Assembly (NCBI GenBank): GCA_019058245.1
Contig: JAHPZJ010000020.1
Coordinates: 9,986 to 73,985 of the forward strand
DNA from: Promethearchaeota archaeon
Lineage (GTDB): Archaea > Asgardarchaeota > Lokiarchaeia > Sigyniarchaeales > SOKP01
DNA: 64,000 nt
Direction of reading: 5' to 3'
The notes beneath the pieces were generated by a model, which saw only the letters and a list, made by a program, of their open reading frames with translations, did no database searches and was not told the origin of the DNA. Position numbers and translations under genes: made by a program. This document shows, one piece after another, positions 33,433-35,794 of the stretch. The stretch's first letter is position 1; each line of letters opens with the position of its first letter.

Positions 33433-33840
33433 TTTCCTGTACTTTTCTAATTCTTATTAAATATATTTCTTACTTGTAATATTGATAAAGAAAAATAAGA
33501 AAATAATATAAAATTATCAATTTCGAACCGATAATATAGAAAATTTTTTTTTGAAAAAATTTCTTACAACAATGTTTTAACGTTATTGAAAGAGATCTTT
33601 CAAGATTTATTTAATTTTAATAATATTAGATTATTTAATATAGTTATATAAATTTAAAAAATTCCCAGATTAATAATCCAAAAGTTTATGGGATTTATTC
33701 GAAACGATATTAATAAATAGTAGAAAAATAACTTTAAATATTAGTTTCTTTTTGATTTTATAGAATAAGTATCAATAATTTAATCTTTTACAATAATTTA
33801 TTAAATAAATAAAAAAATCTAAAGTACTCTAGATGAGGAG

Positions 33841-34854
33841 ATAAAGTTTAATATTAAACTAGTTGTTTGTGGTGAAGGAAAAGTTGGGAAAACTTCAATA
33901 ATAGATGCTTTTTTAGGTAATGAAGTTCCTGAACAATACTTACCAACAATCGGTAATGTCACTAATAAAAAAGAATATTTATTAAAGGAGAATGGTAAAT
34001 CACTTAAAATTTTGATATCGATATGGGATTTAGGTGGTCAAAGATCTTTCAATCCATTTAATCCTTCAATATATACTAATACAGATATTGCTATTTTAGT
34101 TTTTGATTTAACTAGACCAGAAGAGACTTTAAAAAATTTAAAGAGAGAATTCTTAAAAAATTTAAATCAAAATTCTGAAGATTTCTTATTACTTTATGTT
34201 GGAAATAAAATAGATCTACTTGAAAAAGATAATTCTTTAAAAATGGCAATTCAAGAGTTCTTTACTCAAAATGATCATCTAATGCTAACATCCGCCAAAA
34301 CAGGAGAAAATGTTGCTGATTGTTTTGAATTGTTATTATCAACTTATTTAAGAAAAGAGGAAATTTTAAATCCAGATCTAATTCTTGATAATCCCTCTAG
34401 TGTGTTTCATAATCTCATTGGCAAGGATGAGGAGAAATTAAAAAATAAACTTATTAAAATAACTGAGATTGAGTCAGTCCTAGAAAAAATAAAACCGATA
34501 CCAAAAACAGTAAAAGAAGAGAAAGTTATTGAGGAAGAAGCGAAGGAAGATAAAGAAGTAAAATATTATGAATTTCTTAGAAAAGAATTAGATCAAAATG
34601 AATTACAAAGATTAGAAGTACTAGATCGTTTTTTAATAAGTTTATCAGAATTAGATGATACAATAAAACATATTAAAAAATCAAAAACCACATCCGTGAT
34701 TGGACTAATTGATGATTTAAAGAAAATTTTAATAAATGCTAAGAAAGAATTTAAAAAGAATGCTAATTTAATGATAAAATTAAATTCAGAAGAATTTGAA
34801 TTAATAAAGGTTATCTCCAAGTTTGATGAAGAACAATCTTTACTAAACCAATAA
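33841..34854 (+). CDS. Rab/Ras-like small GTPase with a ~170-aa coiled-coil C-terminal extension; the 5' end is uncertain (no canonical start upstream of the P-loop)
   Basis: My hand translation of the frame upstream of the track ORF (34012) gives IKFNIKLVVCGEGKVGKTSIIDAFLGNEVPEQYLPTIGNV. After that come WDLGGQ, GNKIDL and TSAKTGENV. An in-frame TAA lies at 33820-33822. Confidence 0.8.
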   Translation: MKFNIKLVVCGEGKVGKTSIIDAFLGNEVPEQYLPTIGNVTNKKEYLLKENGKSLKILISIWDLGGQRSFNPFNPSIYTNTDIAILVFDLTRPEETLKNLKREFLKNLNQNSEDFLLLYVGNKIDLLEKDNSLKMAIQEFFTQNDHLMLTSAKTGENVADCFELLLSTYLRKEEILNPDLILDNPSSVFHNLIGKDEEKLKNKLIKITEIESVLEKIKPIPKTVKEEKVIEEEAKEDKEVKYYEFLRKELDQNELQRLEVLDRFLISLSELDDTIKHIKKSKTTSVIGLIDDLKKILINAKKEFKKNANLMIKLNSEEFELIKVISKFDEEQSLLNQ

Positions 34855-34921: not shown

Positions 34922-35794
34922 ATGCCCGAAGAAGTATCTCTAAAAGATTTTCAAAAATTAAAGGATCAATTTAATAAATTTGAACAAAAATTTAGTGATT
35001 TATTTAAAAAATCTGAACAAAAATCAACTGACCAATTTAATGATATTGAGAAGAAATTAACAGTTCAGGTTGATGATATAAAAAAATATTCAACCGAAAA
35101 TATTAGCAAATTAGAACAAAAAGTAAAGGACGATTATACATCATTAGCTCAAAATATAGATGATCTAGAAGAAAAAATAGATACAAAAATTGAAACTCTA
35201 GCAAATACGGTTGGAAAAGAATTAAATGAAAAGTTTGCAAGTTTAGAACTAAAAATTGAGGGAATCCATAAATTATTAAATTCCGAAATTGAAAAAAAAA
35301 TCAAAAATATTGACCAACAATTGAATGTCTATGTAAGTAGTCTCAAAAGCGATTTAAAAACTATAAATGATGACCTAAAAAAAAATAAGGGAGAATTTTC
35401 TACTAGCTTAAAAACTGTAAAAAAAGATATTAAAGCGAAGGAAGAAGGGCTTTCAGATATGATTAAAAGTTTTGATAAAAAAAATATAGAATTTAAGAAA
35501 GAGATTAAACCTGTTATTGAAAACCTTAAAAGACAGCAAGATTTAGTCAAAATTACTGTTGATATACTGAAAAATCAGATTTATGAGAGTGCTAAAGAAT
35601 GGATTAATGACGAAATAAAATTAGCTTGTAAGGGTAAAGAAAAAGAAATTTTGATGAATTTATGGATTGATGAGATGAAAGAAATTATTGCAAACATAGA
35701 TAAATTAAAGGAAATGCATCCTAAAGAATTAAAACTTCATATAAATGAGATTTCAAGCACTATTGAATCATTTAAAGAGAAGTTTATAAAATAA
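34922..35794 (+). CDS. Coiled-coil protein, hypothetical
   Basis: The sequence is K/E/D-rich with heptad-like periodicity throughout. The ATG at 34922 is preferred over the GTG at 34913. It lies 60 nt downstream of the coiled-coil GTPase on the same strand. Confidence 0.6.
   Translation: MPEEVSLKDFQKLKDQFNKFEQKFSDLFKKSEQKSTDQFNDIEKKLTVQVDDIKKYSTENISKLEQKVKDDYTSLAQNIDDLEEKIDTKIETLANTVGKELNEKFASLELKIEGIHKLLNSEIEKKIKNIDQQLNVYVSSLKSDLKTINDDLKKNKGEFSTSLKTVKKDIKAKEEGLSDMIKSFDKKNIEFKKEIKPVIENLKRQQDLVKITVDILKNQIYESAKEWINDEIKLACKGKEKEILMNLWIDEMKEIIANIDKLKEMHPKELKLHINEISSTIESFKEKFIK

Follow-up and report, generated by a model that had tools for sequence, protein, structure and literature searches.

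The 64,000-nucleotide (nt) window analysed here, a stretch of contig JAHPZJ010000020.1 (positions 9,986 to 73,985; our contig C20) of the Promethearchaeota archaeon assembly GCA_019058245.1, carries on its plus strand a gene for a Ras/Rab-type GTPase that has no canonical start codon ahead of its first nucleotide-binding motifs. The genome (G000; 3.09 Mb in 31 contigs, about 28% GC) is an incomplete bin, 76% complete. The GTPase frame is open for 343 codons (33823-34851) and runs stop to stop, from a TAA at 33820-33822 to a TAA at 34852-34854. The codons that follow the upstream stop are AGT ACT CTA GAT GAG GAG ATA AAG TTT AAT ATT AAA, continuing with CTA GTT GTT TGT GGT; none of the first twelve is ATG, GTG or TTG. 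The earliest canonical in-frame codon is a TTG at 34012-34014, just 5' of the WDLGGQ motif, from which gene finders derive a product of 280 residues; we judge that it is not the true start. An earlier note on this DNA had described the same arrangement, and on re-reading all of its coordinates hold (the TAA, the codons after it, TTG 34012, motifs G1 and G2, an out-of-frame ATG at 33833 and a purine-rich GAGGAG), while its claim that no ATG, GTG or TTG separates the stop from the P-loop was verified codon by codon.

The GTPase domain spans 33856-34380 and is recognized by Pfam Ras (PF00071; E = 2e-26, 93 bits with a cut-off of 21.6) and by TIGR00231 (E = 8e-19, 68 bits with a cut-off of 42.5). 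All five G motifs are present on motif reading: G1 GEGKVGKTS (33871-33897), G2 YLPTIG (33937-33954), G3 WDLGGQ (34024-34041), G4 GNKID (34201-34215), and G5 TSAK (34288-34299). These conform to GxxxxGK[ST], the G2 threonine, DxxGQ, NKxD and SAK, respectively. The PF00071 match begins at profile position 1, which falls on frame residue 12 at 33856 and leaves room for only 11 codons upstream.

Three separate short-read runs (SRR26074220, SRR26074164, and SRR26074226; Logan), each assembled on its own, gave contigs that show the start-less arrangement without a single base difference and match the window exactly over the entire 5' region. The arrangement is also kept in related lineages. L022 (genome G077, 86% protein identity), L023/L027 (G081, 71%) and L026 (70%) likewise have no in-frame ATG, GTG or TTG before the P-loop; L025 (72%) completes the sub-clade. 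Because the arrangement is reproduced in three assemblies and conserved in related lineages, it is not a product of chance. The frames are intact in all five lineages, at 333-347 codons in an AT-rich genome. Whole-gene pairwise comparison of the window with L022, both of them start-less, yields a ratio of nonsynonymous to synonymous substitution rates (dN/dS) of 0.18 at dS 0.34, and the remaining pairs give 0.22-0.33. When the comparison is restricted to the 52 codons from 33856 to TTG 34012, dN/dS is 0.08-0.37 in 9 of the 10 pairs. The codons before TTG 34012 are thus under purifying selection, and the P-loop region is translated.

Immediately ahead of the domain, the five lineages have in common a 24-nt block, GAGGAG ATA AAR TTT AAY ATT AAR, with variants only at 33846 (A/G), 33852 (T/C) and 33858 (A/G), all of them synonymous third positions. 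Upstream of the block the lineages diverge, with indels and with stops at differing sites. Its first eight nucleotides, GAGGAGAT (33835-33842), constitute a Shine-Dalgarno element that is invariant in the five lineages and pairs with the 16S ribosomal RNA (rRNA) tail ...GAUCACCUCCU at a predicted -7.7 to -8.0 kcal/mol in every one of them; AGGAG alone, paired with the extreme 16S 3' end, is predicted to reach about -5.3 to -6.8 kcal/mol. The purine-rich GAGGAG pointed out previously (33835-33840) is part of this element and proves to be a conserved match to the anti-Shine-Dalgarno tail. GAG is a minority glutamate codon (20%) in this genome, and yet it is invariant in the block. The 3' end of the genus 16S rRNA, GGATCACCTCCT, was recovered through a pattern search in genomes G002, G005 and G006. 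The Rfam archaeal small-subunit model detected no 16S rRNA in G000, G006, G077 or G081, including the single-contig G006, in which 28 nt of the 16S 3' region are nevertheless matched exactly; the rRNA may be interrupted by insertions.

Near-cognate ATA, ATT and ATC starts are a real habit of this genome, found in at least about 50 genes of at least 100 codons. A site counted as start-like if at least 100 codons stayed open after it and if a stop in the same frame, with no intervening canonical start, lay within the 20-25 codons before it. Across the whole genome, such sites lie 7 nt after GGTG for ATA in 22 cases, ATT in 13 and ATC in 6, alongside 17 for ATG, 9 for TTG and 5 for GTG; the composition-matched control codons AAT, TAT, TTA and TTT occur there 1, 1, 0 and 2 times. 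At GGTG+6-8 there are 64 near-cognate events versus 14 for six control codons, and ATA is the commonest near-cognate start overall. The genome holds about 48-64 small-GTPase-like open reading frames (ORFs), and 4-5 of 64 ORFs of the family lack a plausible canonical start. Four paralogs of the window gene belong to these, with the arrangements GGTGA-N6-ACG, GGTGA-N6-ATA, GGTGA-N7-ATA and GGGGA-N6-ATT; they lie on C13 (minus strand, P-loop at reverse-strand index 442278) and at C28:265071, C15:76346 and C14:101660.

Two further genes have the GGAG-type arrangement. A radical-SAM gene (L063, G000:C7:21105-22157) displays GGAGA-N12-ATT, with the domain beginning at residue 23 and the following canonical codon at position 49. 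The ortholog in G077:C31 (L069, 95% protein identity) has ACG at the same site, and the start thus appears to have switched between near-cognate codons across species; the ATT that adjoins the ribosome site is not conserved, being GTC in G077. An L7Ae/L30e-family gene (L066, G000:C26:69764-70132) has AGGAGAT-N8-ATT, an arrangement conserved in G081 (L068, G081:C7); a start at its next canonical codon (position 34) would remove part of the domain. We also note a family-2 glycosyltransferase (L062, G000:C13:423912-424718) with ATC, ATA and ATT at +0, +6 and +12 nt after GGGAGG; its Pfam domain begins at residue 10 counted from the ATT, and its next canonical start lies 105 codons in. One GGAG-type candidate, C8:1116 (ApbA), was discarded as internal coding sequence.

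Translation of the window GTPase very probably begins at a near-cognate codon of some kind. The favoured candidate, held with about even confidence, is the ATT at 33853-33855. The 30S subunit would bind the conserved GAGGAGAT through the 16S 3' tail and initiate at ATT 33853, 12 nt after AGGAG, to give a protein of 333 residues that begins MKLVVCGEGKVGKTS (MKLVVCGEG...). On this reading the sub-clade would have exchanged the TTG start of the family for a near-cognate one, and the weak start codon would probably lower output. Spacing is the principal argument. AGGAG-to-ATG distances in this genome range from 8 to 13 nt, with 8 and 12 nt the commonest (15 genes each), and two ATG genes on C8 carry GAGGAGAT/GAGGAGAG and begin 12 nt beyond GAGGAG. 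ATT 33853 therefore sits at a canonical spacing that works in the same genome, while the ATA at 33841 does not. The radical-SAM gene (GGAGA-N12-ATT/ACG) and the L7Ae-family gene (AGGAGAT-N8-ATT) have the same arrangement as the GTPase ATT. With AGGAG paired to the extreme tail, ATT would also stand at the aligned distance of the TTG in 36 orthologs. An N-terminus as short as the one ATT would produce does occur in the family, since paralog C30:88907 begins MKILLFG from an ATG. Finally, the NCBI start in relative P0001 is this same ATT codon.

Several observations weigh against ATT 33853. In the most stable duplex register the codon lies 2-3 nt beyond the usual range, and canonical starts led by GAGGAG peak at 8-9 nt, with 6 of about 35 at 11-12 nt. 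GGAG-type sites have no overall near-cognate enrichment, with 29 events versus 28 for controls. The would-be spacer is unusually well kept: ATA AAR TTT AAY differs at 1 of 12 positions, synonymously, at 71-86% protein identity, whereas the true spacers of control genes differ at 2 of 12 and 2 of 8 positions at 93-95% identity. By this pattern the 12-nt stretch separating ATT from the ribosome site looks like coding sequence. Initiation at ATT would also drop KFNI, which is modelled in strand β1 (residues 2-10) with a predicted local distance difference test score (pLDDT) of about 91, and FNIK/KFNI aligns with the conserved, translated INLK of the orthologs.

These same points favour the second candidate, ATA at 33841-33843, from which the protein would begin MKFNIKLVVCGEG and comprise 337 residues. 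Here GAGGAG would serve as immediate upstream context and not as a spaced site. ATA 33841 is invariant, the codons from it onward change solely at synonymous third positions and are better kept than control spacers, and ATA, as noted above, is the most frequent near-cognate start of the genome. The INLK with which FNIK aligns is surely translated in the TTG-type orthologs. The spacing of ATA 33841 to GGAG, however, is 0 nt, and no ATG gene in the genome has that arrangement. Nor are ATA and ATT at GGAG+0-2 any commoner than control codons; in the radical-SAM gene it is the distal near-cognate codon that is conserved and not the one touching the ribosome site; and no second ribosome site lies upstream of ATA in any lineage. 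We regard initiation at ATA as possible, and tentatively so. A more elaborate form, in which ATA is the true start through its immediate upstream context instead of a spaced duplex, would resemble the context-dependent start selection of eukaryotes and turn the 24-nt block into an element specialised for initiation or regulation, through which the GTPase dose is set; this seems rather unlikely. A leaderless transcript beginning at ATA was considered as well. An A-rich TATA-like sequence does lie 24-38 nt 5' of ATA in three lineages, though not in L025, and the strongly conserved promoter is located about 100 nt upstream. Anything other than initiation at ATT or ATA is improbable.

The earlier note had proposed initiation at ATA, ATT or CTA, or else a change of frame. 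ATA and ATT stand. CTA 33829 matches the TTG of the orthologs in one possible alignment; it was rejected as it is not near-cognate and is CCA in L023. AAG 33844 was likewise rejected as a start, being AAA in all relatives. Frame change is taken up below with the remaining explanations, all of which fare far worse than the two near-cognate candidates.

A recently inactivated pseudogene that has lost its start codon is very improbable. The family TTG start is indeed gone, and the earlier note had allowed for a decaying gene that its orthologs would reveal as truncated. Comparison with the orthologs finds no truncation: the frames are intact in five lineages, the substitution ratio against L022 is low, the five G motifs are whole and the block is conserved. 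Purifying selection on the codons upstream of TTG 34012 excludes both this explanation and the 280-residue product.

The assembly error that had also been anticipated, with a missing base hiding an in-frame ATG, is barely credible. One nucleotide added between 33836 and 33841 would bring ATG 33833 into the frame, and the genome is incomplete and in 31 contigs; yet no extra or missing base was seen in the three per-run assemblies, and the relatives maintain the same frame with no ATG at that place. Equally slight is the case for a start at TTG 34012, which would leave a protein devoid of P-loop and switch I. TTG 34012 is the first canonical codon and is used by two public gene calls, but purifying selection acts on the 52 codons ahead of it, where G1 and G2 are encoded intact, and its equivalent in P0001/L022 is a glutamine codon and not a start. 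A GTPase of the Ras fold without G1 could not bind nucleotide. Least likely of all is a programmed frameshift or termination-reinitiation from the ORF ATG AGG AGA TAA (33833-33844, plus strand), which lies in the +1 frame, stops after 3 codons with a TAA that overlaps ATA 33841 as ATAA, and plays no part in the proposed mechanism; its ATG is replaced by GAC in L022, TAC in L023/L026/L027 and CTC in L025, and this absence from all four related lineages, which keep the block, excludes the frameshift and upstream-ORF ideas.

Orthologs of the GTPase were found in 43 of the 53 other genomes of the genus, and the 5' end could be read in 42 of them (that of G001 is cut by a contig end). With the sub-clade left aside, 36 genomes have TTG at the eighth codon before KLVV, two have GTG (G084 and G090), and two have TCG (G005 and G092). 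In six genomes the TTG comes immediately after a TAA, which makes TTG the start in those six. The TTG or GTG start follows AGG(C/T)GAT by 7-9 nt, with AGGTG at this place in G071, and the full ribosome-binding site of the TTG-type orthologs reads AGGAGGTGATCC. Their protein opens MD(N/G)T-INLK-LVV, and the P-loop glycine invariably follows 12 residues after its first. A spliceosome-like reading of the 'ttttctag|GCG' found in the orthologs was dropped, TAGGCGAT being the ribosome-binding site, at which G071 has AGGTG.

In the two TCG genomes (L013, G005:C16; L046, G092:C46) the region reads TAG GCG ATA TTT ATT TCG GAA..., with TCG in place of TTG, and the ORFs are intact at 333 residues. An ATT lies one codon 5' of the TCG and 6 nt after GGCG, the usual near-cognate spacing. 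To judge from these alignments, G005/G092 is a second, independent start-less lineage, and the canonical start has been lost twice independently, in G005/G092 and in the sub-clade of the window, with selection on the gene kept each time. Protein-based scans of genome and metagenome collections returned nothing beyond the already known relative, and a DNA-pattern scan returned an unrelated radical-SAM gene.

The upstream TAA of the window aligns with a GAA codon in L025, whose frame continues to an ATG. In that lineage (positions 1498-1540; GCA_964515085.1) TAA ATG stands 13 codons 5' of the ATA of the block and has no ribosome site of its own; this ATG is either an ancestral N-terminal extension lost elsewhere or a chance ATG favoured by gene callers. 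NCBI annotation of the relatives varies: P0001 is given the proximal ATT as its start, P0004/5 an ATT that immediately follows the stop, and P0003 the ATG. Close relatives within the genus bear NCBI labels of five Asgard phyla (Odin-, Hod-, Hermod-, Thor- and Promethearchaeota), and such names are unreliable taxonomically. Most homologs carry source labels of Promethearchaeota or Lokiarchaeota, by which the organism is a Loki-type Asgard archaeon.

Comparison of the lineages also reveals a conserved promoter-like block of 39 nt (33724-33762, plus strand) with a TATA-like TTTAAATA at 33733-33740. It is near-invariant in the five lineages of the sub-clade while its flanks diverge. The block, consisting of TTTAAATA and a T-rich stretch, occurs about 100 nt 5' of the start genus-wide, including the TTG-type orthologs L002-L017, and protein identity across these orthologs is only 50-60%. 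From the usual archaeal TATA-to-start distance, we infer a transcription start near 33762, which would leave a leader of some 80-90 nt. This leader is predicted to fold no more stably than shuffled sequences (z = -0.03), and it matched no Rfam family. TTG-type species have a leader of about 75 nt that is well conserved in its own right.

The closest solved structure to the GTPase is Ypt51/Rab5 (1ek0, E = 3.5e-23), followed by Rab7 (1vg1) and a Thorarchaeota Rab (7ezb). An AlphaFold model of the protein begun at ATA has a mean pLDDT of 82. Beyond the core, a C-terminal extension of about 165 residues (34381-34854, the TAA at 34852-34854 included) is modelled as two long helices (residues 232-280 and 286-336) packed as a hairpin, for which Pfam has no match. 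The protein ends ...EEQSLLNQ with no nearby cysteine for geranylgeranylation, so that it is not a Rab proper of the eukaryotic type; 'Rab family' is the label that NCBI gives to the relatives. The product is best explained as a functional small GTPase of Rab-like type, extended by helices at its C-terminus.

Downstream lies a gene for a coiled-coil protein of 290 residues (34922-35794, plus strand), a conserved neighbour with weak Pfam matches limited to helical repeats. A gene of 257-290 residues follows the GTPase in L022, L023 and L025-L027, and the order of an NMO-type oxidoreductase (minus strand), the GTPase, the coiled-coil gene and a PfkB kinase is kept in the relatives.

The practical consequence concerns annotation. 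Gene finders report a 280-residue product that lacks the P-loop and switch I, and NCBI applies three start rules in three relatives. As a result, inventories of Asgard small GTPases, which feed arguments on the origin of eukaryotic membrane trafficking, will hold truncated or inconsistent entries. The locus further documents start-codon turnover inside one orthogroup, from TTG to near-cognate and twice over, and supports the view that the genus tolerates and uses near-cognate starts. It widens the known types of ribosome site and their spacings beyond GGTGA-N6, and it offers a concrete case in which ATT and ATA make different predictions.

As a protein, the GTPase resembles eukaryotic Rab5/Ypt51 and Rab7 and the Thorarchaeota Rab over a core of about 160-170 residues (E = 3.5e-23 to 1e-13) that includes G1-G5. 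It differs in its tail, which is hypervariable in eukaryotic Rabs and here takes the form of the helical extension ending LLNQ, with no cysteine for prenylation. As for its start, Escherichia coli infC provides a parallel, with a near-cognate AUU start behind a ribosome-binding site. That gene is autoregulated through its own IF3 product, a logic of which a Rab-like GTPase gives no sign.

In the literature searched, archaeal reviews name only AUG, GUG and UUG as starts (PMC7531240), and aIF1 is reported to select against non-canonical ones (PMC6237735). Among experimental cases the best counterpart comes from bacteria. In Staphylococcus aureus, AUU and AUA starts of cvfC1, ccpN, citZ and infC behind extended Shine-Dalgarno sequences operate at about 10-30% of the AUG level, as demonstrated by Ribo-Ret and reporter assays (PMC13009471). 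The likeness to the present gene lies in a conserved AUU/AUA start and a strong extended ribosome site that are conserved together across species (PMC13009471). The differences are that the S. aureus system is bacterial and uses IF3, in contrast to archaeal aIF1/aIF2, and that it involves a handful of genes, compared with at least about 50 here, identified from sequence.

A further close parallel is found in the same genome, in the GGTG(A)-N6-7-ATA/ATT/ATC/ACG class. Its members, like the GTPase, are intact conserved genes that lack a canonical start, place an ATH codon behind a match to the 16S tail and are shortened by gene finders. Their spacer is sharply set at 6-7 nt, whereas the GTPase site, GAGGAGAT, has a GGAG core with 10-12 nt to the ATT. 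In place of the GGTG core there is GGAG(A), and the codons at GGAG+6 and +9 are TTT and AAT, the ATT following at +12. Besides the GTPase, only two other cases of this GGAG-type arrangement are supported by domains. The GTPase works like the GGTGA-N6 class but is not a typical member of it.

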